Positions 33,035-57,066 of a DNA stretch of 64,000 bases are shown piece after piece. Position 1 is the stretch's first letter, and each line of letters begins with the position of its first letter. This DNA comes from a virus: IMG/VR virus record IMGVR_UViG_3300027747_001183, one strand, 5' to 3'. The position numbers and the translations under genes were made by a program. The notes beneath the pieces were generated by a model. It worked only from the letters and a program-made list of their open reading frames with translations, did not search any database and was not told the DNA's origin.

Positions 33035-34294
33035 TTACTTCTTGACCGTATTAGACAGTGATTTTACGTATGCCTGCATGTCAGGTGCGACATATTGTGC
33101 AGCTTCTGGCTCCTCTACAGACTCGCTAAGGAGCTGATCCTGGGTCACCTTAACTTCACTCTTGCCTGCAAAATAAGTTTCTTTAATGATATTAGCCTTC
33201 TTGACAAACTCTTCTGCCGAAGAATAGTCCACAGCCTCAATCAGCTTTGTAAACTTCTCTTTCTGAGTATCAGTCATGCCTTCAGACAGCTCATCTGCAG
33301 CTTCCTTGACTTTCTTCTCAGACACTACCTTAGTAAGCTCGATGTTCTTCTCAGTAGTCTCATTGATCTGGGACTCTAGAGCTTCTACCATTGCGAGCAG
33401 CGACTCGACTACAGATACTTCGTCGTCTGGAATGTCGAGGTGGTGCTCGTTGAAGAGGTTGTATAGACCTGCAAGGAAAGACTCAGTGACTTCAGTCTTG
33501 ATGTTCTCTTCTACTGCAAGCTTGTTCTGTTCAATCCACTCAGCTACTGCGTAGTTGAGGTAGCTGTCGATGTTCTCTTCCATCTCTTCCTTGATAGAGT
33601 CAAGGGCTTCCTGAGCTTCCTCAGCTAGCTCTTCCTCGATCTTAGCTACTTCTAGTGCAACGCGTGTACCGACTGCAGCCTCAAAGATAGTTCCGATCTT
33701 GTCCTTGAACTCTTCCGAAAGGTCCTGTGAGTCGCCGAATACTAGCTCAAGGTCTTCCTTTGCGATCTGCTTCATGGCTTCTGCTGGAGCGCTAGCTGAC
33801 TGGATAGATGTCTTGTTCTTGTTAGCGTCACCGTTAGCGTATGAAGTATTGTTGTCGAACACTTCTTCTGGTGAGTGCGTCATTTCTTCTGGATTAGCTA
33901 GAGTTGCAACGAATGCTGCTAGCTCCATTGGGGCCATCATTGTAGCATACTGAACCATGGTCCTCATGAGGTCAGAGCGCGATACGTTAGTTGGGTTAGC
34001 GTCGATGGTACTGCCGTTCTGAGTCATGGCAACATCTTCCTTAACTTCTTTGAACTCAGAAGCATGCTTTACTAGAGTATGTATAGGATACTTACCAAGA
34101 GCTCCATGTGTGATTGTCTTATTTGTATTTTTATCAACCATATCAGGCCCATCGAAGTAGACTGTACGGCCTGTTTCCTTACGAATGATCTTACCAGCAT
34201 GTATCTGCTGATCGTGTTGGACCGGGGAGCGCCCGTCATCCACTACATTAGCTTCATCTAGTTCGTTCTGGACGTTTAGATTTTCGTTAGACAT
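33035..34294 (-). CDS. 22: Prohead core scaffolding protein gp22 with an N-terminal extension
   Basis: LSEEFK..IFEAAV, YLNYAVAEW and ESFLAGL; lies between gp21 and gp23. Confidence 0.9.
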   Translation of the reverse strand: MSNENLNVQNELDEANVVDDGRSPVQHDQQIHAGKIIRKETGRTVYFDGPDMVDKNTNKTITHGALGKYPIHTLVKHASEFKEVKEDVAMTQNGSTIDANPTNVSRSDLMRTMVQYATMMAPMELAAFVATLANPEEMTHSPEEVFDNNTSYANGDANKNKTSIQSASAPAEAMKQIAKEDLELVFGDSQDLSEEFKDKIGTIFEAAVGTRVALEVAKIEEELAEEAQEALDSIKEEMEENIDSYLNYAVAEWIEQNKLAVEENIKTEVTESFLAGLYNLFNEHHLDIPDDEVSVVESLLAMVEALESQINETTEKNIELTKVVSEKKVKEAADELSEGMTDTQKEKFTKLIEAVDYSSAEEFVKKANIIKETYFAGKSEVKVTQDQLLSESVEEPEAAQYVAPDMQAYVKSLSNTVKK

Positions 34295-34335: not shown

Positions 34336-34995
34336 TTAGAGATTTGAAACGAAGTGCTTGAATACTCTCAGTTTAGCCTCTTCTAGCTCAGTCTTAGTGA
34401 CCTTGCGAGCGGCTTCCTCGATATGAGCCTTCGCCTTCTCGAGTTCTTGGGCCTTGAGAACTCCATTGTCCCATACCCACTCGACTCCCTCCATGATGCC
34501 GTTTACGAATGCATTCGGTGCAGACGGGTCTGCTACGATGTCGCCGGCAGTGGCTAGGTAGAAGTCGTCCTGTACTACGTGAACGCCGTTGACTTCTTTT
34601 AGCGAGCCCATTCCACGGGTAGATACTCCGAGCTGTACTCCAGACTCGATCAAGTTTCGTGCAATCTCGCCCATTGGTGTAGGTAGGATCATTGCCTTGC
34701 CGATGAAGTTGTTACCTTCTGGAACTAGAGAAACGATCTTATGAGAGATGCGGTCTAGGTTAAGTGAAGGACCTTCTGGGTGGCCGAGCTCTCCAAGAGC
34801 GCGACCCTTGTTCACGTAGTCTTCAACGTATCTGTTGACTTCGCGAGTAACGGACTCAAGACGATACATGCGCCCGTTGCGGTTCTTTACTTCCGTCTGG
34901 ATAAACGGTCCATGGATATAGAGGTTCTTCTTTCCCTCTACACCCTCTTCGGTGATTACCTTAAGTTCTTCGTTTAGTTCTGTGATGAGTTTCAT
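34336..34995 (-). CDS. 21: Prohead protease gp21
   Basis: MKLITE, NRNGR, GELGHP, GVSTRGMGS and DIVADPS. Confidence 0.96.
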   Translation of the reverse strand: MKLITELNEELKVITEEGVEGKKNLYIHGPFIQTEVKNRNGRMYRLESVTREVNRYVEDYVNKGRALGELGHPEGPSLNLDRISHKIVSLVPEGNNFIGKAMILPTPMGEIARNLIESGVQLGVSTRGMGSLKEVNGVHVVQDDFYLATAGDIVADPSAPNAFVNGIMEGVEWVWDNGVLKAQELEKAKAHIEEAARKVTKTELEEAKLRVFKHFVSNL

Positions 34996-35007: not shown

Positions 35008-35286
35008 TTAATTTTTATAAGCAACTGGTGTAGCTGCCAAAGAAACACCTGAATGGTTTGACGTTATAATATCTGTTTTACCTTTTTCTACGATAAAACT
35101 TTCTCCACCTACAATAGACACACTCCACAAGATTGTTGTGTTAGTTGAGTCTTTGCATGTAATTACAGCTAAAGTTGTTATTGCACCTGCATGTGACATC
35201 AATACTAAAGAACTATTACCATAAGAACTAAAAGTTGAAGTATTACAACTTGATGTATTGCCAGTTGGTTTAATTATAGCAGCCAT
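35008..35286 (-). CDS. Small hypothetical virion-associated protein
   Basis: 92-aa ORF coupled (TAATG) to the long upstream gene. Confidence 0.7.
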   Translation of the reverse strand: MAAIIKPTGNTSSCNTSTFSSYGNSSLVLMSHAGAITTLAVITCKDSTNTTILWSVSIVGGESFIVEKGKTDIITSNHSGVSLAATPVAYKN

Positions 35287-38200
35287 TAGATTCCATGCTC
35301 CTCTGCAAATGCTAGAAGAGTGTCGATGCCGTCTTGTGAACCAAGCATGTCATCGAACTTAACCCTGTTCTCTTCTGAGAGCGTATCATATAGACGCTCT
35401 AGTACTTCTTCTGCCATCTTCTTCTTCTTTGACCTAAGAAGCTTAAAGTCTATCTTGGTAAGCTTCTCGTCACGGTTCATGTCTAGGTTCTTCTGTCCAC
35501 CAACTAATTCTTCTACCTTGATCTCTCTCTTTGCTGCCCTAACGAACTTAGGGCGACCATTCGGGAAGACTCTGATAATCATGGGACCCCTTGCAGAATC
35601 CTTTGTAGTTACGTCAGTGTCTTCATTTCTTATAGATCTCTTAGTCATAGATCCGAGAGATACCCTTGGCTTCTTTTCTACTGCAGGGGGCTTGCCGTGC
35701 TTCACTACGTGCATGAAGTGTTCGTGCGAGTGAGCCAGGGCATTCTGTACTTCTTCTTTCTTACCCATAGCTACCGTAGTATTTGCATGTATCTCAAGGG
35801 CTTTTGCTACGTGCTTTGGATCTACGAGGTGCTTCTCGCCGTTCTCAAAAGTAAGCTTGTGCATACCGTTGACTGGAGCCTTGTGCATCTGGTTGATGAT
35901 GTTGTTATTTGCTGCGCGTTCTACGCGATCTGACTCTTCTTCGTCGTCGCCCTTCTTCTCTACTACGTAGTCTTCACCCATGCGGTTCATGAAGTTGCCG
36001 TAGCTGGAAGCCATCTTACCAGACTGGCTGTAAGATGGAGCTGAGTCAGAAGTCTTATCTTTATCGCCATAGACCATATAGTCATGGACTCCAGAGATCA
36101 TCTCCTTGGCAGAAGCGATCTTTGACTGTACCCATGGCTCGATGTGCATGCTCTGAGACATATTGTTCATCATGTCTTCAGCTTTAGCGCATATAGCCTT
36201 GAGCTCAGTGCGCACCATCGACACCTCATCAGAGACGTAGTCGTTGTCTTCATATGCCTCGTTGCGCTGCTTTGAATAGTAGGCAGCCATCGCCTGCTTC
36301 ATTCGTTCTTTCTTTGACTTGCCTGCTAAATTAGAAGCTTTACTGTGAACAAAGTCTGATATCCAAGTACCAATAGGAGTCTTCTTTGTAAGGACTTCAT
36401 TGACTTGCTCGACTTCTTCATTCTGTTTAGTAGAAGATTCTTTTTTCTGTCTTTCAAGATCTCGAATTTGATCTAGAATAGTGTTCCTCTTATTACGAAG
36501 TCCTTCTTCTCTAGGACTCATAGTTCTGCTTCCTCTATTTCTGCGAGCTTGTTGTGCGCGTCCATATAGAACATCATGACGATTATATTGGTTTTGCAAG
36601 CTTGCAATCTTCTTGTCGATGTTTTCATTGACTTGCTCGACTTCTTCAGCAACAGATATAGTACCTATATGACGACCAATTGGTTGTTTTTTATTACGAA
36701 TATAATATAAATGAGTATTTTCCTCACCATACTTATTTGTATGACTAATTGTATGACCTGGAATATCAGCTCTAATACGCCCAGGACCATAACGATCTCT
36801 CATTGCTTTTTTGTGGGCGTCTGGTACTGTTGCTTCATAAAGTTCAACTTCTTCTTTAATTCTTCTTAAAGCACTAGGTTCTACGATTGTTTTTGTACCA
36901 CCCATTGTTGTAATACGAGATTGCGTACCTGTTATAAATCCACCAAAGTCTACTTCATGATCACCATTAGGTAAAATTTTTGTTATAATACCTTTATGGC
37001 CATGAGAAGCAGATCCTGGAGCATGGATTTTTACAAGATCACCAACATGGTGTGCTTCATCAATAGTTCCAGTAATGCCTTTTCTAAGAACAGTATCTTT
37101 TTCTTGTTCGCCTTTAGAAAGAGCATAAAAAGGTGTTCGTTGAAGTTTTTCTCTAGCAGCTTGTTTTTCTGGATTAGGTGCAGGCACTTGATTAACTGTT
37201 TTACCCCAACCTTTATGAACTTCAGAATCTTGTGCTCTAGAATTACCACCCATTCTTTTAGATGTAAGAGCAGCATGAGCGCTATTAAAATTCGCCACAG
37301 AACCAAACCCTTGCTTTCTTCTATTACCAGCGATAGGTGACACACCACCTTTAGTAGTACCATAGTGATATTTTGTATTTAATGCTTCATCACCTCGAGT
37401 CGCTGCACGTGCAGTTCTTACATTTTGTACTCCAGGACTTACAGGACGAAATGTTCCTTTTTTACCCATTTCATTGACTTGCTCGACTTCTTCATTCTTC
37501 ATAGGTTTTCTAGAATAAACGTCAACGCGTGCGCTGTGCTCAGGCTTGATGTCTTGAGATGTCATCCTATAGTGTTTGCCGCCCCTCTTATAAAGGTGCT
37601 TGAACTTATCGAGAGGAGTGCGGCCGCGAACCCTGTGTCCGCCGACGGCTTTGCTCTTCATGTCAGCGAGCTTCTCGTCGTAGTCGGGATCGTCTTTCTT
37701 AATAGTGCCGATGTAGGTGTCGGTACGACTCGCTTCGTCGAGCTCAACGTCTTCGTTCTTCATAGCTGCTTTACGGGCTTTTTCATCTCTCATCATCTTT
37801 ACAATGTTTGGTGAACCAAACTCTGGAGCTTTCTTCATTGTGTCAGAATAAAGCTTTGGCTTAGACATAGTTGACTTTGCTTCATCAAGTTCTGCTTCTT
37901 TTTTCATTGAAGTGTAGCCAAGACCAGACCAGTGCTTCTTGTGTACGTGACCGAGAACGAAGTCGCGAGGATCAGTGTCCATCTTGGCAAGATGGTTCTT
38001 TAGACCTTCGAGGTGACCGTGCTCGATATGGTGAGCAGCCTGAAGCATGTCATGCCTATCGATGCCGCCATGCTCGCGCGCATAATTTCTAAGCTCTTTA
38101 TGGTCGCCAAGTGAGTGGCTCATGTTTGCTTCGTTGTGAATCTTCTTTAGAGTCTGTGCGAGCTTTAGGCCCCTGTCATATGCCTGTGCAGACTGGTCAC

Positions 38201-38387
38201 CTTCGTATGATGCAGTCTTTGGATCTTCCCTGCGCTTGTTGCCGTTGAATACGTGCTCTTGATCAGTAACGCCTGGAACTAAGTTCTTGTGATCGACCGA
38301 GTGAAGAGCCTTGAAGTTCTTCTCACCCTGTGATAGAGGCTGCTGAGTCTCTTTGAGAGACTTCTTTAAGAGGTCATACATTTTCAT
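35286..38387 (-). CDS. Modular prohead-core-region protein (~1033 aa), candidate cleavable polyprotein
   Basis: Sits in the gp68/internal-protein slot; repeated EEVEQVNE, EDVELDEA, EEVELYEA and EAELDEA linkers separate basic modules. Confidence 0.8.
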   Translation of the reverse strand: MKMYDLLKKSLKETQQPLSQGEKNFKALHSVDHKNLVPGVTDQEHVFNGNKRREDPKTASYEGDQSAQAYDRGLKLAQTLKKIHNEANMSHSLGDHKELRNYAREHGGIDRHDMLQAAHHIEHGHLEGLKNHLAKMDTDPRDFVLGHVHKKHWSGLGYTSMKKEAELDEAKSTMSKPKLYSDTMKKAPEFGSPNIVKMMRDEKARKAAMKNEDVELDEASRTDTYIGTIKKDDPDYDEKLADMKSKAVGGHRVRGRTPLDKFKHLYKRGGKHYRMTSQDIKPEHSARVDVYSRKPMKNEEVEQVNEMGKKGTFRPVSPGVQNVRTARAATRGDEALNTKYHYGTTKGGVSPIAGNRRKQGFGSVANFNSAHAALTSKRMGGNSRAQDSEVHKGWGKTVNQVPAPNPEKQAAREKLQRTPFYALSKGEQEKDTVLRKGITGTIDEAHHVGDLVKIHAPGSASHGHKGIITKILPNGDHEVDFGGFITGTQSRITTMGGTKTIVEPSALRRIKEEVELYEATVPDAHKKAMRDRYGPGRIRADIPGHTISHTNKYGEENTHLYYIRNKKQPIGRHIGTISVAEEVEQVNENIDKKIASLQNQYNRHDVLYGRAQQARRNRGSRTMSPREEGLRNKRNTILDQIRDLERQKKESSTKQNEEVEQVNEVLTKKTPIGTWISDFVHSKASNLAGKSKKERMKQAMAAYYSKQRNEAYEDNDYVSDEVSMVRTELKAICAKAEDMMNNMSQSMHIEPWVQSKIASAKEMISGVHDYMVYGDKDKTSDSAPSYSQSGKMASSYGNFMNRMGEDYVVEKKGDDEEESDRVERAANNNIINQMHKAPVNGMHKLTFENGEKHLVDPKHVAKALEIHANTTVAMGKKEEVQNALAHSHEHFMHVVKHGKPPAVEKKPRVSLGSMTKRSIRNEDTDVTTKDSARGPMIIRVFPNGRPKFVRAAKREIKVEELVGGQKNLDMNRDEKLTKIDFKLLRSKKKKMAEEVLERLYDTLSEENRVKFDDMLGSQDGIDTLLAFAEEHGI
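36396..37494. repeat. Three exact 25-bp direct repeats encoding EEVEQVNE
   Basis: TTCATTGACTTGCTCGACTTCTTCA at 36396-36420, 36624-36648 and 37470-37494; spacings of 228 and 846 bp keep the frame. Confidence 0.95.
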
Positions 38388-38601
38388 CTGATTGTTCTTC
38401 CTGATCTGTGGTTTCTTGTTCCTCAGAATCGACTGCTTCTTGCTGACCGTCAGTAGCACCAAAGATGCTAGCGGCTACATCAGGAAACATCGCGTCAACT
38501 GCGTCGGCCACCTTAGATGTCATGATATCGTCGATCGCGGTCTTTAGTCCGACTGCGTCCTTGTTGAATGCGCTAGTAAAGATGTCAGCGATAGTAGTCA
38601 T
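38374..38601 (-). CDS. Small acidic prohead core protein (gp67-like by position)
   Basis: 75 aa with an acidic tail, directly after the portal; late promoter and GGAGG RBS. Confidence 0.7.
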   Translation of the reverse strand: MTTIADIFTSAFNKDAVGLKTAIDDIMTSKVADAVDAMFPDVAASIFGATDGQQEAVDSEEQETTDQEEQSDENV

Positions 38602-38634: not shown

Positions 38635-40251
38635 TTAGTAGGCTTCGCCGGACCCAGACACCTTAGTACCCTGTTCTACGCCTGTAGTCTGGGATTGGTT
38701 TCCGGTTCCGTCTAGTTCTGGTCTATTTGCGATGGGCGGCGGCGGTGGAGCCATACCTGGGTCCTGAGGAGGAAGCATTGGAACTTTCTCTTCTGCCATC
38801 TCGTCCATCATGTCTGCTATCTCCTGCTCGCTCTGGAACAGGATGTTCTTGCGTACCCACAGGTCTGAATAGTAGCGTCCAATGTAGGGCATGACTTGGT
38901 TCAGAAGCTGCAGCCTGTTCTGCATGATCTCGATCTCTTTGAACTCTTCAAAGTGGTTGTCCACAGTAAAGTCAAAGTGAATCTGATTCTCTAGCTCTTT
39001 CCAGTCTTCCTCAGAAACTATACCCTTAAGGACTAGCTGCTTCTCGAGGGCTTTTAAGAACAGCATAGAGAACCTGCGACGCAGGCGTCCTACAAACTTA
39101 GTAAACTTTACCTCGTCTCTCGAGATCTCAGACGCCCTGCCGAGGATGTTTGCGGACTCTTGGTTGAGACGGGAAACTGGAACGTTGAGTGCCTGATAGA
39201 GCTTCTTCTGGAAGTACTCTACGTCGGTCATCTCGCCGAGGTTCTGCCCTGCTGGGAGGGTAGTGATCTCGGTGCCCTTGTTGCCTTCCCTTCTCGGAAG
39301 CCAGTAGTCCTCGAGCATCGTCATGTACTTACGATCGTCGCGCACCTCACCCGAAGTGGCGTCGTATACTAGACGGTTCTTGTGGCGGACCATCATGTCG
39401 CGAAGGTACTGCTCAGCCTTTACCTTAGGTAGATTTCCAACGTCAATATAGAATATGCGACGCTCAGGAGCGCGAGAAATACGATAGATAACCGTAGCAT
39501 CTTCGAGCGTCCTTAGCTGGTTTAGCGGCTTGATAGCCTTCTGCACGTACGAGTAGACCAGCTGGTTGTTCTTATCAGTCAGCCCAGAAGTAACGTGGAT
39601 TATTGAGTCGATTGATATTCTTAGACCGCCGGTAGAGTTGTTGTCCTGCGCTATGCCCGCATTTCCGGGTGCTGCCATGAAAGTGCGGTCTGAGTATACG
39701 TAGTACTCACGCTTTACTTTCTGGACTACGATCGGCCCCTTGGCTTCTTTCTTTACTTCGCGTATCTTCCTGACCTTTCTAGGGTCTAGATAGCGAAGCT
39801 CTTGGATTCCAAGGCGTGGATTCTTCTCGTCAATGATGAGGTGATAGTACATACGGCCGTCGACGTACCATCTCTTGAAGAGCTCGTACGCCTCGATCTG
39901 AAAGTTAAAGAGCTTGAGGATAGTCTTGAACTCTTCCCTTATCTTCTGCTTGATAGGGTCGCCGTATTCTACCTTGTCGAGATTAATGTCGATTATCTTC
40001 TCGGCGTCGGTGTCGATAGCTTCGTTGACGATGTCGTCGATGGCTGCTTCGAGTTCAGGCTGTAGTGAGATCTCTCTGTACTTAGCTACTAGCTCAGCCT
40101 CAGTGCGGGCGGTGCCGTCTAAGTCAATGAAGGTGCCGTAGGATCCACCCGCAGCAACGACGACTGCGCCGTCGTCCTTTATCTCTGGGGCAAAGGACTC
40201 TAACGGAGTCTCGTCTTTTCTCTTGATTTCAAATCCAAATAACTGCATCAC
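38635..40251 (-). CDS. 20: Portal vertex protein gp20
   Basis: RAPERRIFYIDVGNLP, MLEDYWLPRREG and RDEVKF. Confidence 0.97.
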   Translation of the reverse strand: MMQLFGFEIKRKDETPLESFAPEIKDDGAVVVAAGGSYGTFIDLDGTARTEAELVAKYREISLQPELEAAIDDIVNEAIDTDAEKIIDINLDKVEYGDPIKQKIREEFKTILKLFNFQIEAYELFKRWYVDGRMYYHLIIDEKNPRLGIQELRYLDPRKVRKIREVKKEAKGPIVVQKVKREYYVYSDRTFMAAPGNAGIAQDNNSTGGLRISIDSIIHVTSGLTDKNNQLVYSYVQKAIKPLNQLRTLEDATVIYRISRAPERRIFYIDVGNLPKVKAEQYLRDMMVRHKNRLVYDATSGEVRDDRKYMTMLEDYWLPRREGNKGTEITTLPAGQNLGEMTDVEYFQKKLYQALNVPVSRLNQESANILGRASEISRDEVKFTKFVGRLRRRFSMLFLKALEKQLVLKGIVSEEDWKELENQIHFDFTVDNHFEEFKEIEIMQNRLQLLNQVMPYIGRYYSDLWVRKNILFQSEQEIADMMDEMAEEKVPMLPPQDPGMAPPPPPIANRPELDGTGNQSQTTGVEQGTKVSGSGEAY

Positions 40252-48408: not shown

Positions 48409-48726
48409 TTAGAATGGAAGGTCTTTAATTGTAGTAGGTGGTGCTACAGCAACATTAATTGCATCAGCTACAGCAGATTCGTAGTATGCTATATTTGAAA
48501 AAGTATCTACCCAACCATCGAAGATTTCTTTAGTAAGATCTTTATATTTAACAAATTTTGATGGGTCTGGTGAAGTTAGGTCTACTTTAAAGCCAACTGG
48601 AATACTCGTCCCACTGTCTGAGTCACTTCCAGTTAAAATGCAATAAAATGACTTTACAACATCTTTAAGTTTGCCTTCAGTAGCAACTGCAACTTGTGAG
48701 TATTCTTTTAAATATGTAATGTTCAT
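48409..48726 (-). CDS. Hypothetical tail-fibre-associated protein
   Basis: 105 aa; FVKYKDLTKE..W..LPF pattern; follows fibre genes. Confidence 0.6.
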   Translation of the reverse strand: MNITYLKEYSQVAVATEGKLKDVVKSFYCILTGSDSDSGTSIPVGFKVDLTSPDPSKFVKYKDLTKEIFDGWVDTFSNIAYYESAVADAINVAVAPPTTIKDLPF

Positions 48727-48727
48727 G

Positions 48728-49114
48728 TTAGACTCCTATTGCTTGCCATGTACAAAGATTTGTTGCTGCTACAGCTTGTGAGCTTCTCACTTGCAACACT
48801 GTCGTATTAGCACCCGCTGCGTATCCATAAAAACCAGTTAAACCAGAGGTAACAGACCAACTATATACAGTTGTAAATGCTGTAGTAAATGTAATATTGC
48901 CAACAGACGTGTTAGCTAAAATATTACCCCATTGCATTAACAATCCATTTGCTAAACGAGTATAACCATTATTAGCAGTGATAGATGATGTGCCTAGAGT
49001 AAAGGTGTTGGTACTTACGTTAGCAAATCCAGTTATTGTAGTATTACCAGCCGCTAGTGTGGTATCTATTGTAGCATTACCGTAGACTCTAGTGCCACTT
49101 AATAAGTTTGCCAT
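48728..49114 (-). CDS. Small fibre-tip-like virion protein
   Basis: GYTRLANGLLMQWG...WQAIG C-terminal fibre domain. Confidence 0.7.
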   Translation of the reverse strand: MANLLSGTRVYGNATIDTTLAAGNTTITGFANVSTNTFTLGTSSITANNGYTRLANGLLMQWGNILANTSVGNITFTTAFTTVYSWSVTSGLTGFYGYAAGANTTVLQVRSSQAVAATNLCTWQAIGV

Positions 49115-49141
49115 TTAAACTTCCCCAATGAATACTTATAT

Positions 49142-51373
49142 TTATGCTGGTTTAGTATATTCATCAAATATACCAGTAATTTGTAAGCTGCCGGTAGAAC
49201 TCAATCTCTGAACTGCTACACCAGATCCAGCATAGTTATATATAGTAAACGGTGAAGTGTTTGAGTTTACTGACGGTGTTCCAGTTATAGTAAATGAAGC
49301 ACCAATTGAACTACTGTCTACAAATTTATTAGATTTACAAGTTAATACTTTTGTATTGGTTATAGCTGTAAGCGGTGCAGTAGGAGGGGTGAAAGCCCCA
49401 GTGTAGACTGCAGTGCCTATCACTACTCGAAAATTAGATATATATCCGTTCCAAGTCTGCGCAGTGTTATCGCCGTATTGTCTACCGATATTTACTGGTA
49501 CGTTTGATACCGTTGGAGTAAGTGCGTTACTAGCAACAGATACACCGTTAACATACAACGTATTTGTACCACCACTGCCAACTAATGCGACATGATTCCA
49601 AACACTAGGTAGAAATTTTTGAGCTGCCGAAGTTTGTATTTTACCGCTACCATTTCCATTGACAAAGAATGATATTGAATTGCTTGTGTTTACATACACT
49701 GATATACCAGCTGTACCAGAACTAGCTGCAGGTGTAAGTGTGAAAATTCCCTGCTGTGAAGCACCAGTACTTATACCGTATGCCCAGCACTCTATTGTAT
49801 AGTCACCAGTAGATATATTATATGCTGTACTAGCAGCTATAGTTAGATAATCAGGAGTAGCACTATTAAAAAAGTAATTATAAAATCCATCTAATGTATT
49901 AGGTGTTTGTGATAATGCTGTTACTGTACCATTTTTTGTGATTGTTGCAGCATTTGTACTAGTATCTAAAATGTTATTAACAGATGTGTTTGGCGGATTT
50001 ATCAGTAGTTGAGTATTAGCAATAGCGTTTGGTGGTTGAATTGGTGGAGTAAATATTTGAGTTCCTAATGTAGTATTGGATGTTTGATATGCAACAGGAA
50101 TATTATTAGATACTAATCTTAAGTTAGAGATATATCCTTTACTATAGTTTCCTCCACTAGAAGGAATGCCAATGTATACAGGACCAGAAGCAGAAGCTAA
50201 TGTTTGTGAATCAGTACGAGCCGCTACCAAATATCCATTTACAAATATCTTTGCATTTCCTGAAGTATCTCTAGTAAATGCAACATGTGACCATGAATTT
50301 AACGGTACGGTAGATGCACCAGATAGTGTTGTATTAGCTAATAGTATATAAGTACTACTTCCGGTACCTGCTATATTCCATCTAATATCAGTAGCTGATA
50401 CTACTGAAAAGCCCCAGGTTGGTCCTGTAGCACCATATGACCAATTTCTACTAGCTAGGAATATAGGGTTCGTGTATGAGGTTGGATACACCCATGCTTC
50501 AAATGAAACAGATGAGCCTGAATTGAAATCAAAATATGAATTATATGGAATAGTAAGATATCCACTGGTTCCATCAAACTGCAAACTTCCCAATGCTGCT
50601 GGGTTATTCGTTACTTCGTCAAATGTACTTGCTACCTGTAATGAACCATCGTTAATTTGTCTTTGTTTTAAAGAAGTAACGCCCCTGTTAAATGGTCCAG
50701 TTGCAATCCATGCAGATGATCCGTTATTTGTTAGTGTAAGTTTACTTGTACTGTTATCATCGATAAAAGCAGTCGAGTTTAATACATTCAACAGCAATTT
50801 TGTATTTGCTGTAGCGGGTAACAATAATTGTGATGGTGTAAATGCAGCAGAATATACTGCTTCGTAGGCTATTCTTACGTTAGAGATATAGCCGGAGAAA
50901 TAAGCAGTTCCTGTAGGAGTAAGTCCAACAGTAAATGTAGTAGAGGTTATATTTGTAGTGTCACTAAAAGTTCCATCTAGTACACCGTTCACATATACTG
51001 CAAAGCTGCTTGCTCCAGTCCTTACTACTGCAAGATGATACCAAGTATTTGCCACTAGAGTAGCAGCACCAGTATACTTGACGCCACCAGAATTTGTAAT
51101 ACTGATGTGTGCACTAGCTATTTGTATATCAAGTCCGTCTGAAGTGTTGCCAGAACGGTTGTTCAATATAGTTTGAACGGCTCCTGACACTCGTGTAGTA
51201 TTAAACCAGCATTCATAGGTAATTGAACCGCTTCCAGGAGCAGGCATTGATGTAGTAGAAAGGTAAGAAGAAGTCCCATTAAGATTTATAGAACCTACAC
51301 CAATACTAAGTTCATCAAGTGTTCCATTAGTATAAAGATTGCCTGACGAATTAATTCTAGTTGCATAAGCCAT
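49142..51373 (-). CDS. Virion protein with three LamG/concanavalin-A-like domains
   Basis: Three copies of T.E.W...W.H.A......YVNG...GYISN.R. Confidence 0.85.
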   Translation of the reverse strand: MAYATRINSSGNLYTNGTLDELSIGVGSINLNGTSSYLSTTSMPAPGSGSITYECWFNTTRVSGAVQTILNNRSGNTSDGLDIQIASAHISITNSGGVKYTGAATLVANTWYHLAVVRTGASSFAVYVNGVLDGTFSDTTNITSTTFTVGLTPTGTAYFSGYISNVRIAYEAVYSAAFTPSQLLLPATANTKLLLNVLNSTAFIDDNSTSKLTLTNNGSSAWIATGPFNRGVTSLKQRQINDGSLQVASTFDEVTNNPAALGSLQFDGTSGYLTIPYNSYFDFNSGSSVSFEAWVYPTSYTNPIFLASRNWSYGATGPTWGFSVVSATDIRWNIAGTGSSTYILLANTTLSGASTVPLNSWSHVAFTRDTSGNAKIFVNGYLVAARTDSQTLASASGPVYIGIPSSGGNYSKGYISNLRLVSNNIPVAYQTSNTTLGTQIFTPPIQPPNAIANTQLLINPPNTSVNNILDTSTNAATITKNGTVTALSQTPNTLDGFYNYFFNSATPDYLTIAASTAYNISTGDYTIECWAYGISTGASQQGIFTLTPAASSGTAGISVYVNTSNSISFFVNGNGSGKIQTSAAQKFLPSVWNHVALVGSGGTNTLYVNGVSVASNALTPTVSNVPVNIGRQYGDNTAQTWNGYISNFRVVIGTAVYTGAFTPPTAPLTAITNTKVLTCKSNKFVDSSSIGASFTITGTPSVNSNTSPFTIYNYAGSGVAVQRLSSTGSLQITGIFDEYTKPA

Positions 51374-54300
51374 TAGCCAAATACCGTGTCAAGACTCGTA
51401 GTCGATGCATTGTAGTACGTATATGCTTGGTTAGCACCAGCTGAGTTGGCGAATCCAATGCGTCCTGCAGTATATATGTTGCCGTTAGCGCCGATACCAC
51501 CGTAAGTTACTATCGCGCCGGCAGTCGCGTTGGGAGACGCGGTAGTAGAGCTGAACGTAATCACGTTGCTGAACGTCTGAGTGTTAGTCCATGAGTACTG
51601 GGCTGCAACGTTCGTACTCCCCGCCGATACAGTCGACCAATACGGAGCTCCCGTACCGCCGTTCGACGTAAGCACCTGGCCGGCCGTACCGACGCCGCCG
51701 TTGGAACTCAGTGGTATACCAGAAATTGTGATCTGCGACGTGTTGGCTATGAATGAAGTACCAACCGTATGCGATGCAGCATTCATAGTTCCTGTATGAT
51801 ACAAGCCCGTTACGTTGGCAGTAAATGGAGTAGCTGTAGTATTAGTCTGCGTTAATGAAGTAGCAGTTATAATAGTATTGACTGTTGAGTTGGAAGATAC
51901 AAACGCTGCAGTTGCATTTATATAGACGTTGGCGCCTGCATAGTGCACAGCAGCATTCGCATTACCAGTAGTAGTAAATGCAGCTGCATTTATTATACCG
52001 GTATGATATATACCTGTTACGTTAGCAACTAATGGTACTGCAGTTGTATTCGATTGTGTAATAGATGTTGCAGTAATTACCGTATTAACTGTCGTATTAG
52101 AACCCACGAGATAGGCTGTTGTATTAGCTTGAACTAATGTTCCTACGTTTGCTGAAGTAGTAGCGTATAGGGTAGCAGTGTTTACCTGTCCAGTAATGTT
52201 GATAGCAGCAGCGTTGACTAGCGTCGCATTCGCCGTAAACGTAGCACCTACAGTCAATAGTGCTGAGTTAACGCTGGTAGTTACGTTAGCATATCCAGTA
52301 CCAATGATAGCTGTCGAGTTAGCTATAAAGTTAGTACCTACTGTATGAGAGGCAGCATTTATTGTACCACTGTGATAAGTACCGGTAGTATTAGCTATAA
52401 AGTTAGTGCCGACTGTATACGAAGCGGCGTTAACATTTTGTGGAAAGATACTATTACCAGAACCATCAAGTAGTGTTGCGGTACGCGCAATAGTGCCGAC
52501 AGCAAATGTACTACTATACTGACGTACATAAATTGGTTCATTTCCATCATCAGCTGTAGCAATTTCAGCGTAACCCGCATTAGTTGCTGTACCCCCAATT
52601 AAGATACGAAAATAATCGTTGTCAGCTATATTACCACGCAATATTTCTGTAGTATTTGTACCTGTTACAGTTGAAATTAAACCAGTTGCAGTTACTGAAC
52701 CTGAGAAGTCACCTGTGTTGGCTGATAATACAAATCTACCGATAGTGTTACCTAATAATATTGTATTTGATGTTGGTACTATAGCAGTTGTGTTAGCAAC
52801 AAAACCAGTTGTTTTATACGAAGCTGCGTTTATAGTTCCAGTATGGTAGGCTCCAGTAGTGTTTGCAATAAATGAAGTGCCGACATTGTACGATGCAGCG
52901 TTTACCGTGTTGGCCAGTATTGAAGTGCTGAAAGTTATAGTATTACTGAACGTCTGTGTATTTGACCAAGAGAACTGCGCAGAAGTATTAGTAGCTGCCG
53001 GAGTTGCCCAATAGAGTCCACCGGCCGAGTTCGATGTCAGTACCTGACCGGCAGTACCTACCACTGAGTTAGCATATATGTACGTAGGCGTGATGACTGG
53101 AATGGTCAGGTTGCCGTTGTTTAGAGTACCTACAGTAGAAGCAGAAGTCAATCCTACGCTTATCGAATCAGCAGCCATCGATGGAGAACCAGTAGTGGTT
53201 ATCGATCTGCTGCTTCCGCTGTTGTCGATGAAAGTTGCATCTTGCAGAGTTAATACGTACGTACCGGATATGGGCGTGAGTGGTGCAGAAGGCACTGCAA
53301 ATCCAGACAAGCTGTATACCTGCGATCCCGTAACTATTCTAAAGTTAGAGAAAGTCGCTGGTCCTTTAAGACTGCCCCATCCACCCCACGTGCCGTCACT
53401 ATAGTGACCACCAGGTCCTGTACCGATCTGCTGTACGACACCGTTGACTGCAATATACTGAAGACTGTTTCTTCCAATAAGCGCTATGTGATACCAGACG
53501 CCGTTTTGTAGACTCAATCCAGATAATGTATCATTGCCGTAACCCTGATCCGCTATTTGTATTGCTGACGTATTAGCATAGAAACCAAGTCCAGCAATAC
53601 CGTTATCACTATAAGCAACTTGTGTCGATCCCAATGAAGAAAACTTGACAAAGAATTCTACAGTGTATCCGTTACCAGCACTAGGTAAGGTAGGGGTTGG
53701 CCAGCTTGCATTAACCGACGAAGTGCTAAAACTAGTAGAATAGGTAGAGAATAAAGTACTAGCATTCGACGTCAGATTTATACCTTGGAAAGTCGCGTTC
53801 GTAGCACTCACAGACGCTGCGTTTACCGCACCAGTATGATATATTCCTGTCGCGTTAGCTATAAATGGAGTTGCAGTCGTGTTAGCTTGAGTAATGGACG
53901 TAGCAGTTATAATAGTATTTACAGTTGAATTAGCTGCAACTAAGTAAGCTGAAGTATTAGCTCGTAATAATGTTCCCACGTTTGCTGTTGTAGTAGCATA
54001 AAATGTAGCCGTATTAGTTTGACCAGTAATGTTTATTGCCGCAGCATTTACCAGCGTAGAATTGGCTGTAAAGGTAGTTCCTACAGTATAAGATGCTGCA
54101 TTAATTGTATTTGCCAATATAGATGAACTAAACGTAATAGTATTACTGAATGTCTGCGTATTAGTCCAGGTGTACTGTGCAGCTACGTTTACTGAACCAC
54201 CACCGCCAGATACAGTTGACCAGTAGACGTTGCCCGTTCCGTTAGATGTGAGTACCTGACCAGTAGTTCCCTGCGAGCCAGTAGAGTCGATGACGCTGAT

Positions 54301-57066
54301 GCCCGCGTTTAATACCAAGTTAGCGTTGTGCGTTGCCTTACCAGAGAAGTAAGTGTTTGTGCCCGTGAAGTTTATGTTGCCGGATAGGGTACGGCTGTCG
54401 GTGTTCTGTACGTAGCTGGCAGCTGCAACCGTACCTAAGTAGCCGGCAGCGTTGGCGGTTAGAGTCGCGACGTTTGCAGAAAGACCCGCGGTTGTCTGGT
54501 ATCCAGCTGCGGCAGTACCACCTAGGTATGACGAGTTATTAGCAGTCAGGGCGCTACTTACACTTAAAGCAGATTCTAATTTGCCGTTAAGATAACCAGC
54601 AGCATTTGCGGTCAAGGTAGCAACATTAGCAGAAAGTCCAGCCGTTGTCTGATATCCAGATGCTACTGTTCCACCTAAGTAAGAAGCATTATTTGAGGTA
54701 AGAGCACTACTAACGCTAAGAGCTGATTCCAACTTACCATTTAAATATCCAGCTGCGTTAGCTGTTAGTGTAGCTACGTTTGCTGATAGACCTGCAGTAG
54801 TCTGGTACCCAGCTGCGGCAGTACCACCCAGATAAGAAGCATTATTGGCGGTTAATGTTGCAACATTAGCAGATAGACCAGCAGTAGTTTGATACCCAGA
54901 AGCAATAGTACCACCAAGATAAGAAGCGTTGTTAGATGAAAGCGTAGCAACGTTAGCAGATAGACCAGCAGTTGTTTGGTATCCTGAAGCTGCTGTTCCA
55001 CCAAGATAAGAAGCATTATTAGAAGATAATGTTGCGATGTACGAGCTGTTAACAGCTAGAGTTGTGGCAGCAGAACCATCGTATGCAGCACCGGCACTAT
55101 AATATAAACCAGTTCCACCTGTTAGGGCATAGAGTGCTTTTGAACTAAATTGTGCAAATGTAATTGCATCTGTACCTACAGTAGTAATAGTAGATTGTTG
55201 AACCCAAGCAGTACCAGCGCCAATTGATCCTTCAAGGACATAAATTAAATCACCTTTATCAATTTCATTAGTTCCAACACCAACAGTATCATAATCATAT
55301 GCTCTTGTTAGTACCCAAGCATAAGAACCAGAACCAGTATTTGATACAGAGTAAACACCATTTAATGCTGAATTAGATTGTGCCCTTACAAGAATACGAT
55401 CCTGATAAGCAACAGTGACAGTATCTATTACAAGTGCAGCAAAAGAAGTGCTCTTTGTAATAGTAGCTCCAACGCCTGAAGTACCATTATTATATGTTGC
55501 AGTTCCTAGATCTGCATTTGTTGTAAGACGTACAGCAGGGTGAAAATTAATACCAGATGCAATACTATCGGCATATTGCTTGTTAACAATATCCGTACTA
55601 CTAGTAGGAAGTGTTGTAATAGTACCAGAAGTCATTGCAACATTTGCAAATGTTACATTGCTTGTAGTTTGAACATCTTGATTTATGCGATAAGGTAAAC
55701 GAGCTTCGGCTATTGTACCTGAAGATATATTTGTAGCATTAGATGAATAAGTTCTTAAATCTGTAACTGTATTACCACCAACAGTTACAGCATTATTAAC
55801 ATTTAGATTAGATTCTGTCTTACCATTTAGATAGCCAGATGCGTTTGCAGTCAAAGTAGCTACGTTGGCAGACAAACCAGCAGTAGTCTGGTATCCAGAC
55901 GCTGCAGTACCTCCTAGGTATACAGAATCATTAGCCGTAGAAAAAGCGATCGCGGCTACTGCGTTAGAGTACGCGTTTCCTGCCTTGTTGTCTACGTAAG
56001 TCTTTAGTGCCCAGCTAGAAGATACTATACCGCCAAGGTACGCCGAGTTGTTTGCAGTGAGAGCATTGTTGACGTTGAGGTCGGCTTCAAGCTTACCGTT
56101 CAAGTAACCCGCCGCGTTTGCAGTAAGTGTAGCGACGTTAGACGATAGACCTGCAGTAGTCTGGTACCCAGCTGCGGCTGTCCCACCTAGGTACGATGAG
56201 TTATTAGATGAAACTGCTGAGTTGACATTCAAGTTAGACTCAGTCTTACCATTTAAGTAGGTGGCAGCATTAGAAGTCAATGCGCTGTTGACGTTTAAGT
56301 CTGCTTCTAGCTTGCCGTTTAGATACCCTGCCGCGTTTGCAGTTAGCTTAGCAACGTTTGCAGACAGTCCAGCCGTAGTCTGGTATCCCGATGCGGCAGT
56401 AGACCCTAGGTATGCTGCACTGTTGGAAGTAAGCGCATTGTTGACGTTTAAGTCTGCTTCTAGCTTGCCGTTTAGATATCCAGAGTTATTTGCAGTCAAC
56501 GTAGCTACGTTGGCAGATAGGCCCGCAGTAGTCTGATATCCAGAAGCAGCTGTACCACCTAGGTACAGGGCGTTGTTTGCCGTGCCGTTGATAGTGCTGC
56601 TGAAAGTAATGGTATTGCTGAAAGTCTGCGTGTTAGTCCATGTATACTGGGCACCCGCATCTACTCCACCGCCGCTGGTGACTGAAGCCCAATAGCTCTT
56701 AGAACCATCTGTTTTAAGGACATACCCAGGAGTACCGTAGCTGCCGTTTGCAGATATACCGCCGGTCAACACTATGCTGTAAAATTCAGCAGAACCGGTG
56801 ACTGATAGGTTTGCAACGTTTGCAGTACTTACAGTAGCGTTGTTGATGGTAGCAGTATTTGTGTTACTGGTAGTTACAGTAGCGTTGTTGATTACTGCAG
56901 TATTGGTAGTAGAAGACGTAATGTTTGCTGTAGTGATCGAAGCGTTAGCGGTAGTACTAGAAGTCGACGAGATCTTCTTCCAGAGGTTAGTAGCAGATAC
57001 GTACTGGTAGACATACCCACCAGAAGTATACTGTGCACCATTTTGAGGATTTGAAGGAAATGCCAT
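51373..57066 (-). CDS. Long tail fibre/adhesin (1897 aa) with internal repeats and one LamG domain
   Basis: A/N/T/S/G-rich; nine GYQTTAGL repeats; four GQVL..YW..W.NTQTFSN blocks. Confidence 0.85.
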   Translation of the reverse strand: MAFPSNPQNGAQYTSGGYVYQYVSATNLWKKISSTSSTTANASITTANITSSTTNTAVINNATVTTSNTNTATINNATVSTANVANLSVTGSAEFYSIVLTGGISANGSYGTPGYVLKTDGSKSYWASVTSGGGVDAGAQYTWTNTQTFSNTITFSSTINGTANNALYLGGTAASGYQTTAGLSANVATLTANNSGYLNGKLEADLNVNNALTSNSAAYLGSTAASGYQTTAGLSANVAKLTANAAGYLNGKLEADLNVNSALTSNAATYLNGKTESNLNVNSAVSSNNSSYLGGTAAAGYQTTAGLSSNVATLTANAAGYLNGKLEADLNVNNALTANNSAYLGGIVSSSWALKTYVDNKAGNAYSNAVAAIAFSTANDSVYLGGTAASGYQTTAGLSANVATLTANASGYLNGKTESNLNVNNAVTVGGNTVTDLRTYSSNATNISSGTIAEARLPYRINQDVQTTSNVTFANVAMTSGTITTLPTSSTDIVNKQYADSIASGINFHPAVRLTTNADLGTATYNNGTSGVGATITKSTSFAALVIDTVTVAYQDRILVRAQSNSALNGVYSVSNTGSGSYAWVLTRAYDYDTVGVGTNEIDKGDLIYVLEGSIGAGTAWVQQSTITTVGTDAITFAQFSSKALYALTGGTGLYYSAGAAYDGSAATTLAVNSSYIATLSSNNASYLGGTAASGYQTTAGLSANVATLSSNNASYLGGTIASGYQTTAGLSANVATLTANNASYLGGTAAAGYQTTAGLSANVATLTANAAGYLNGKLESALSVSSALTSNNASYLGGTVASGYQTTAGLSANVATLTANAAGYLNGKLESALSVSSALTANNSSYLGGTAAAGYQTTAGLSANVATLTANAAGYLGTVAAASYVQNTDSRTLSGNINFTGTNTYFSGKATHNANLVLNAGISVIDSTGSQGTTGQVLTSNGTGNVYWSTVSGGGGSVNVAAQYTWTNTQTFSNTITFSSSILANTINAASYTVGTTFTANSTLVNAAAINITGQTNTATFYATTTANVGTLLRANTSAYLVAANSTVNTIITATSITQANTTATPFIANATGIYHTGAVNAASVSATNATFQGINLTSNASTLFSTYSTSFSTSSVNASWPTPTLPSAGNGYTVEFFVKFSSLGSTQVAYSDNGIAGLGFYANTSAIQIADQGYGNDTLSGLSLQNGVWYHIALIGRNSLQYIAVNGVVQQIGTGPGGHYSDGTWGGWGSLKGPATFSNFRIVTGSQVYSLSGFAVPSAPLTPISGTYVLTLQDATFIDNSGSSRSITTTGSPSMAADSISVGLTSASTVGTLNNGNLTIPVITPTYIYANSVVGTAGQVLTSNSAGGLYWATPAATNTSAQFSWSNTQTFSNTITFSTSILANTVNAASYNVGTSFIANTTGAYHTGTINAASYKTTGFVANTTAIVPTSNTILLGNTIGRFVLSANTGDFSGSVTATGLISTVTGTNTTEILRGNIADNDYFRILIGGTATNAGYAEIATADDGNEPIYVRQYSSTFAVGTIARTATLLDGSGNSIFPQNVNAASYTVGTNFIANTTGTYHSGTINAASHTVGTNFIANSTAIIGTGYANVTTSVNSALLTVGATFTANATLVNAAAINITGQVNTATLYATTSANVGTLVQANTTAYLVGSNTTVNTVITATSITQSNTTAVPLVANVTGIYHTGIINAAAFTTTGNANAAVHYAGANVYINATAAFVSSNSTVNTIITATSLTQTNTTATPFTANVTGLYHTGTMNAASHTVGTSFIANTSQITISGIPLSSNGGVGTAGQVLTSNGGTGAPYWSTVSAGSTNVAAQYSWTNTQTFSNVITFSSTTASPNATAGAIVTYGGIGANGNIYTAGRIGFANSAGANQAYTYYNASTTSLDTVFG
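54420..56580 (-). repeat. Intragenic tandem peptide repeats in two blocks
   Basis: YLGGTAASGYQTTAGLSANVATL units interleaved with YLNGKLE..L.V..A units. Confidence 0.85.

Follow-up and report, generated by a model that had tools for sequence, protein, structure and literature searches.

Why should a peptide that occurs three times in one phage protein be encoded each time by exactly the same DNA? The question is raised by a gene on the minus strand of a 64-kb stretch of DNA from an uncultured phage (IMG/VR virus record IMGVR_UViG_3300027747_001183), the whole of which is called the window here. The gene encodes a polyprotein of small modules separated by acidic linkers, and an earlier note on this DNA had pointed out that three of these linkers, with the sequence EEVEQVNE, are specified by an identical 25-mer, at spacings of 228 and 846 bp. 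On the basis of the evidence presented below, we consider it probable (roughly 0.72) that the polyprotein is head cargo processed by a protease and that its linkers double as in-frame recombination joints.

Three identical linkers and the modules between them

35286..38387, minus strand: polyprotein gene, ~1033 amino acids (aa), likely start ATG 38387; ends conserved, middle variable
37470..37494, minus strand: linker 1, exact 25-mer, at the junction of the backbone-type module c3 and the imported module A1a
36624..36648, minus strand: linker 2, exact 25-mer, at the junction of modules A2 and B
36396..36420, minus strand: linker 3, exact 25-mer, at the junction of module B and the conserved C-terminal backbone

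The repeats proved to be as the earlier note had described them, in frame and unique in the window: there is no mismatch among the three copies (36396-36420, 36624-36648 and 37470-37494), both spacings are multiples of three, no further copy exists in the window even when up to three mismatches are allowed, and 100 dinucleotide shuffles yielded 0 matches. Read on the minus strand, the copies all specify EEVEQVNE, at residues 324-331, 606-613 and 682-689 (residues are numbered from TTG 38462, the first codon of the mechanical open reading frame (ORF) 35286-38462, minus strand). The shared sequence extends to 29 nucleotides (nt) for copies 1 and 3 and to 26 nt for copies 1 and 2; at the codon usage of the window, the chance that three independent encodings of EEVEQVNE would agree is ~9e-6. 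The contrast drawn by the same note with the peptide repeats of the tail fibre, said to differ at synonymous sites, also stands, in that repeats of up to 38 aa in a 1897-aa ORF differ at 34/114 nt. In this fibre ORF (51373-57066), identical peptide repeats differ at ~30% of nt, as if DNA identity were avoided; the tail-fibre region as a whole (48409-57066, minus strand) is AT-rich at third codon positions, with a G+C fraction at these positions (GC3) of 0.19-0.23 over 48409-51373 and of 0.33 in the 1897-aa ORF.

The linkers divide the gene into the following parts, all on the minus strand.

38349..38387, minus strand: N-terminal leader of 13 residues ending L-K-E, resembling the T4 capsid-targeting sequence (CTS)
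37881..38348, minus strand: modules c0 and c1, residues 39-194, ending in the linker KKEAELDE (37881-37904)
37734..37880, minus strand: module c2, residues 195-243, ending in the linker NEDVELDE (37734-37757)
37470..37733, minus strand: module c3, residues 244-331, with linker 1 at its end; in other proteins it has linkers on both sides
37056..37469, minus strand: module A1a, residues 332-469, an AT-rich import, basic helical domain ending T-I-D-E, GC3 0.108
36834..37055, minus strand: module A1b, residues 470-543, GC3 0.095, ending in the linker KEEVELYE (36834-36857)
36649..36833, minus strand: module A2 body, residues 544-605, GC3 0.145
36421..36623, minus strand: module B body, residues 614-681, an AT-rich import, basic, GC3 0.25-0.263
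35289..36395, minus strand: conserved C-terminal backbone C1-C4, residues 690-1058; C1 is preceded by [LIVF]xE in 82/82 aligned occurrences

The composition of these parts is strongly non-uniform. GC3 is 0.106 over residues 332-605 and 0.25 over residues 614-681, versus 0.554 in the N-terminal and 0.523 in the C-terminal part of the gene, and averages 0.54 (standard deviation 0.13) among the genes of the window. Computed per module, it is 0.10-0.26 between the repeats and 0.52-0.55 elsewhere in the gene, which confirms the impression of the earlier note that the DNA between the repeats is AT-rich in its codon thirds. At the N-terminal end of the array, the c0/c1 junction (38150-38170, minus strand) has no linker and looks like the in-frame loss of an extra module relative to the homologous protein P0152, from the nearest backbone relative, and to contig L026; c0 and c1 would accordingly come off as one piece. 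Module c1 has 88% nt identity to L026, and c1-like modules occupy other positions in other proteins.

Exchange of modules at the linkers

A search of 1.84 billion representative proteins placed the polyprotein in a family of 1350 representatives (E<=1e-3). The window protein was cut at its linker motifs and the pieces were placed on the top 150 of these 1350 matches, among which the N-terminal block c0 and the C-terminal block C3-C4 recur, and the modules between them vary in number, combination and order. The window has the order c0-c1-c2-c3-A1a-A1b-A2-B-C1; P0153 has c0-c2-c3-small module-C1, with other small modules in P0154 and P0155, and P0152 and L026 have c0-extra module-c1-other module-C1. 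Several of the top 150 proteins have C2 before C1, and A1a begins at positions 25, 80, 412 or 395 in proteins of 267-906 aa. An A2-like module stands before A1a or A1b, not after it, in L011 and P0059, and the A1b homologues P0109, P0125, P0059 and P0151 lie in other contexts, an x-x-E site preceding each of them. Rather than sharing one module set, relatives such as L006-9, L026, L036 and P0152-P0155 carry other modules between the same conserved ends, and the breakpoints lie in the linkers. Both outcomes by which the earlier note would have been refuted, uniform GC3 and an unchanged module set in relatives, thus turned out the other way.

The proposal of the earlier note, that the linkers serve as crossover sites at which modules are exchanged in frame, is supported by the positions at which homology to individual relatives is lost and regained. 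The contigs L006-9 lack 37475-36424: homology is lost at 37476, within linker 1, and regained at 36423-36422, at linker 3, the gap being filled by a 47-residue module between two linkers that differ in DNA. From L026, whose core is 83-87% identical, the stretch 37890-36423 is missing, and linker 3 is once more the point at which homology returns. The core of L036 is 75-80% identical, yet its c2-c3 block reaches 91.5% nt identity (37477-37886; L036:3247-3656) and terminates inside the KKEAELDE linker at one end and at base 37477, inside linker 1, at the other. This block represents a second, independent module exchange with both ends in linkers.

The AT-rich modules have their nearest relatives elsewhere. 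In L025 (35.6% GC), A1a is 91.8% identical at the nt level, starting right after linker 1, and the only other similarity of that contig to the window is one short, weak match of 165 nt at 74%; A1a is also 79-80% identical to L011 and L027. Module B is 93.2% identical to L029 (34.6% GC) and 91.3% identical to L032 (41% GC), from the first base of linker 2 to 8 nt before linker 3, and with both contigs the window shares only B and a 24-mer, the 25-mer without its first base. In L029 and L032, module B likewise follows these 24 nt and has a different upstream neighbour than in the window; between these two contigs, the unit of linker plus B is 97% identical, versus 77-80% for its flanks. All homology breakpoints lie in or beside a linker, and each of the three repeats is, on these alignments, a junction of segments with different nearest relatives.

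Since A1a and B are near-identical in AT-rich phages of unrelated backbone, they are imports, and since module GC3 matches the AT-rich contigs (native GC3 of L025 and L029, 0.16-0.29) and not the resident gene, the flow was from an AT-rich pool into the window phage. The block A1a, A1b, A2, B stands, as the comparison shows, in place of the small module found in relatives between linker positions 1 and 3. No contig contains A1a-A1b-A2-B together, and the pieces are found separately and in other orders elsewhere, so that the block was probably assembled in more than one step; for A1b and A2, searches of viral contigs for a source returned the same species only.

The same junctions are present in assemblies from other samples (L002 at 99.45% and L001 at 98.3% identity), with single-nucleotide polymorphisms (SNPs) inside the modules. 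As all three strain-level assemblies carry the block, it is older than their 0.5-1.7% divergence. Of the suggestion in the earlier note that the AT-rich modules are recent arrivals, the arrival is therefore upheld and the recency is relative only. Within A1a (37138-37410, minus strand), most of the alleles that set the window apart from L001, L002 and L025 are changes of A to G, which may, in what is a small sample, be a first sign of amelioration to the resident composition.

Proposed processing and packaging, and alternative explanations

38635..40251, minus strand: gp20-type portal (Pfam Portal_T4, E 3e-173)
34336..34995, minus strand: gp21-type prohead protease, the presumed processing enzyme (Pfam Peptidase_S77, E 8e-32; PHROG 207, E 6e-80)
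33035..34294, minus strand: gp22-type scaffold, whose N-terminus has the ELDE/A motif found in the polyprotein linkers

The window phage is a T4-like myophage, with the gene order sheath, tube, portal, 75-aa acidic ORF, polyprotein, 92-aa ORF, S77 protease, gp22-type scaffold and major capsid protein; the protease gene is two genes downstream of the polyprotein. The placement between portal and protease is maintained in L026, L027, L036 and the contig of P0152. The position of the gp20-type portal fixes the locus as that of the prohead core, occupied in T4 by gp67 and gp68, which gp21 degrades (T4 gene order, NC_000866). The gene is a single open frame of >1000 codons, its orthologues are likewise single genes (650-1190 aa), and a Met equivalent to ATG 38387 opens the orthologues P0152 and P0154. 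The cultured phages with the closest portals (52-57% identical), namely Stenotrophomonas DLP6, the Sinorhizobium phiM12 group, a pelagimyophage and cyanophages, have only small ORFs in the portal-protease interval.

The site consensus of the T4 protease gp21 is L/I-x-E. In the polyprotein family, [LIVMF]xE occurs within 2 residues of the first residue of a module at 103/104 aligned boundaries (c3, A1a, A1b and C1), the background being 2.1% per residue. The scaffold N-terminus has the same ELDE/A as two linkers of the polyprotein gene. T4 gp21 and its giant-phage relatives cut after Glu at a short motif (PMC5694885). Many relatives of the polyprotein open with MKTF....E followed by the same conserved block, and leaders near to that of T4, as judged by eye against the T4 CTS quoted in PMC8442874, are found on the polyproteins of L011, L029 and L032 and on the stand-alone A1a homologues P0062 and P0147.

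These features suggest the following mechanism. The polyprotein would begin with a targeting leader of T4 type, continue as a variable array of small modules unrelated to one another and close with a part conserved at the C-terminus. Each module terminates in an acidic linker, the final three residues of which, hydrophobic-x-Glu, are of the site type of the gp21-family protease. The prohead would probably take up the whole chain, which would then be cleaved into some nine pieces that remain with the DNA, as T4 internal proteins do, and that may be injected with it. At the nucleic acid level, the ~24-nt linker DNA would act as a homology patch in a fixed codon phase, and recombination between the linkers of co-infecting phages, via the phage's own recombination machinery, would insert, delete or replace modules while the frame is kept and the cut site regenerated.

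Several observations weigh against this reading or against its simplest form. The first concerns the identity of the linkers itself. The 45 nt upstream of linker 1 match L006 save at synonymous sites and the 45 nt downstream are identical to L025 (45/45), but the linker differs at 5/24 nt from the L006 linker, at 5/24 from the A1a leader of L025 and at 3/24 from L036, and is the same as the leader before module B in L029 and L032. Being unlike both apparent parents, linker 1 cannot owe its identity to a plain crossover scar, and an extra step is needed; we infer that conversion to the B-type leader made the linkers alike, or that they entered from a donor in which they were already identical. 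Most relatives have linkers that have diverged within one gene, exact pairs being present in L015 (26 nt) and L023 (21 nt). The 24-mer is found in L029/L031 and L032 in one copy each, before module B, and the exact 25-mer occurs elsewhere only in two IMG/VR contigs of the same species and nowhere in the metagenome collection. The earlier note had proposed looking in related phages for the 25-mer around different inserts: the exact repeat flanks no others, and only a degenerate form of the linker does. Variants lacking 228, 846 or 1074 bp, or with other inserts, are absent among the proteins and contigs of this species.

A global comparison of the endpoints of BLAST high-scoring segment pairs with linker positions gave only 1.6-2.6-fold enrichment, blurred by alignments running through shared linkers, and the per-module boundary count given above was used in its place. 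Among 26 distinct linkers of different phages, codons 3-5 are far more often G/C-ending than codons for these residues outside the linkers of the genes concerned (z 3.1, 5.4 and 4.3) and codons 1, 2 and 7 less often so, in a sample that is small and not independent; the bias points to a consensus at the nucleotide level, which repeated exchange or selection may have kept. Cleavage at the linkers, plausible as it is, is deduced from motif, gene position and leaders. The modules match no Pfam or PHROGs family at E<=1 and hence no named family. Pairwise BLASTP aligned T4 gp68 with the polyprotein at E 3 and did not align T4 gp67 with the 75-aa ORF, comparisons that distant homology could have escaped in both cases.

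The best survivor among the alternatives, though in our view unlikely, is a one-off import, in which the whole AT-rich block arrived with its identical linkers by illegitimate or flank-driven recombination, the linkers being protease sites or spacers and nothing more. It would explain why the three linkers equal the B leader of L029 and L032 and not the linkers of the backbone relatives, and why no variants of the window phage differ at the repeats. It does not fit the separate occurrence and different orders of A1a, A1b, A2 and B in other contigs, nor an A1a leader that differs from the 24-mer in L025, L027 and L011; moreover, backbone homology ends and resumes in or at linkers, and the c2-c3 exchange independently does the same.

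Another possibility, to which we assign a low probability, is that the chain stays uncut, its acidic linkers serving as flexible spacers in a scaffold or core protein built like beads on a string, which acts intact or is simply degraded, so that the modules are not separate cargo. The T4 prohead-core proteins encoded at this position, gp67 and gp68, and gp22 are indeed degraded and not kept (PMC5694885), the modules resemble nothing of known function in Pfam, PHROGs or fold searches, and the case for cleavage is made here from sequence. Against an uncut chain are the regularity of hydrophobic-x-Glu at the boundaries, the existence of the same modules as stand-alone proteins behind CTS-like leaders, the recurrence of ELDE/A at the scaffold N-terminus, and the structure predicted for A1a. 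The AF2 model of this module (pLDDT 87.6) is compact, with six helices and with disordered ends next to the linkers.

The A1a model has no Foldseek match in the PDB at E<=0.001, and its best VIA-align hit, lambda Q at Z 5.7, is under the noise level for helical models. By eye, the C-terminal half of A1a resembles repeats of the ryanodine receptor (RyR) type, a likeness without backing from Pfam (no RyR match at E<=1) or from the fold search, in which a bacterial 'putative ryanodine receptor' chain scored Z 4.1 with a root-mean-square deviation of 7.0, within the noise for helical models. Among the relatives, Pfam detected one sub-threshold RyR match and one LysM only.

It is very improbable that the identity of the linker DNA is maintained by selection on mRNA or translation, such as pausing or local structure, instead of recombination. 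In favour of such selection are the position-specific codon choices common to linkers of different phages, beyond the amino acid sequence. Against it, the linkers within most other genes of the family differ from one another at synonymous sites, linker DNA has diverged in close backbone relatives, and the 24-mer travels with module B between phages, which is a signature of recombination. An assembly chimera, in which reads of different phages were joined at a short repeat, would account for sharp composition steps exactly at short exact repeats and can be dismissed, given that three assemblies from different samples have the same junctions with SNPs, including some inside modules, that the frame is open for >1000 codons, and that a 25-nt repeat is shorter than the usual final k-mers.

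The reading of the polyprotein as processed cargo with recombining linkers can be taken further, albeit tentatively and at what we would regard as less than even odds. The linker may be a portable, phase-locked recombination site under nucleotide-level selection, a coding counterpart of the integron attC, and the portal-protease polyproteins and the internal-protein (IP) locus polyproteins of other phage groups may share one AT-rich pool of injected counter-defence modules. Such modules would move between genera of very different base composition, each ready for expression, packaging and release, and needing neither its own promoter and ribosome-binding site nor its own targeting signal.

Related loci show further variety. 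In the AT-rich relative L027 (37.7% GC), the portal-protease interval contains a tandem pair of polyprotein genes (532 and 906 aa; L027:4392-8721), and in the second of these A1a has 79% nt identity, versus 69-71% for the core genes. A second phage group, represented by L011:4308-6872, L029:3059-4974 and L032 (reverse strand), has polyproteins together with single small genes bearing near-T4 leaders at a locus that adjoins primase and ribonucleotide reductase genes; the three related contigs are almost wholly different in module content. In the window, the polyprotein gene is followed directly by the 92-aa ORF (35008-35286, minus strand; GC3 0.16), which is not homologous to the 117-aa gene found there in L026 and looks to be one more AT-rich replacement between portal and protease. 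The scaffold is long (419 aa), with Pfam T4_CASP covering only residues 179-412; its N-terminus comprises a peptide ending ELDE/A and then ~170 extra residues, possibly scaffold-borne cargo.

Comparison with known systems

Among cultured phages, the family has left little trace. By tblastn against 50,697 phage records, including T4 (NC_000866), neither the whole protein nor A1a has a match at E<=1e-5, and C1-C2 reach only E 0.02-0.06, to hypothetical proteins of cyanophages; megablast of the 8-kb region against the phage records found no match. Homology to T4 IPI, IPII, IPIII or Alt was likewise not detected (PHROGs and Pfam at E<=1; tblastn at E<=1e-5). The family, with its 1350 representative clusters, has neither a named domain nor, among the phage records searched, a cultured representative, and may be a large, unexplored store of small phage effectors. 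The evidence for the direction and mechanism of the exchange is unusually clean: GC3 falls five-fold precisely in the DNA enclosed by the repeats, syntenic relatives have the site empty or filled with something else, and single modules are 92-97% identical to copies in phages that otherwise have unrelated or much more diverged genes. If the polyprotein is indeed cleaved and its products are injected, the linker rule would allow effectors to be picked automatically from metagenomes, and nature would have provided a scheme by which T4-type capsids could be filled with several proteins.

The closest parallel is provided by the internal proteins of T-even phages, whose fast turnover in T4 is a classic question. 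IPI, IPII, IPIII and Alt have a CTS, and the IP loci are hypervariable (PMC3012670; PMC8442874); conserved flanks were proposed to mediate IP shuffling by Repoila et al. 1994 (EMBO J 13:4181), as that work is cited in PMC12373910 and PMC2839356. Ip1-3 of T4 are injected and act against restriction (PMC12373910), which by analogy suggests a similar role for the window modules. Both systems have a short leader ending hydrophobic-x-Glu with presumed gp21-type processing; both consist of small, often basic, unrelated proteins that turn over fast between related phages, and in both a conserved leader marks each unit. T-even IPs, however, are separate genes with their own promoter-bearing flanks, whereas the window gene fuses up to about nine units in one frame, of which only the first has an N-terminal leader, the repeated element being an internal acidic linker. 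The window gene further differs in its location in the portal-protease interval and in the lack of sequence similarity, and its packaging is putative.

A second parallel comes from T4-type phages, in which PeSL (promoter early stem-loop) motifs between genes supply patches of homology and have been shown to recombine (Arbiol et al. 2010, PMC2839356; Comeau et al. 2014, PMC4122927). As with the linkers, a short conserved motif flanks small accessory units and offers a homology patch to the phage recombination system, and it is at the motif that close relatives differ by inserted, lost or replaced units. Mini-circles excised during infection, which inverse PCR on infected cells can reveal, are a further feature of PeSL shuffling (PMC2839356). 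The PeSL is an intergenic promoter and stem-loop of ~50-100 bp, whereas the window motif is coding, ~24 nt long, in a fixed codon phase and a putative protease site.

The polyvalent proteins of phages and conjugative elements also have many domains per polypeptide (Iyer et al. 2017, PMC5512222). They resemble the window polyprotein in combining unrelated domains in one chain encoded among virion genes, with predicted delivery together with the DNA. Their domains are recognisable enzymatic or anti-restriction ones, often accompanied by a peptidase of their own; the window modules match no known domain, and their processing would fall to a separate prohead protease acting at the repeated linker. 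In the head and ejection proteins of the giant phages phiKZ and SPN3US (PMC5694885), a prohead protease similarly cuts after Glu, several times per precursor, but these proteins form paralogous families with long propeptides and not arrays of exchangeable unrelated modules, and linker-level recombination in them is not described in the literature compared.

An analogy, and only that, can be drawn with polymorphic toxin loci (Rhs, CdiA), in which a conserved peptide motif marks the point where C-terminal toxin cassettes are swapped. There too a coding motif is a recombination boundary and, in Rhs, also a cleavage site, but these are secreted bacterial toxins with one variable tip per protein, whereas the window gene has many internal modules.

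No published description of such a polyprotein arrangement was found in the open literature. It is a new variation on the principle of cassette shuffling known from the T-even internal proteins, the new elements being the in-frame fusion, the coding, phase-locked linker that doubles as a putative cut site, and the prohead-core locus. With a linker that is apparently both protease site and recombination joint, a new module would need no regulatory or targeting signals of its own, which makes this gene a more compact solution than the separate IP genes of T-even phages.

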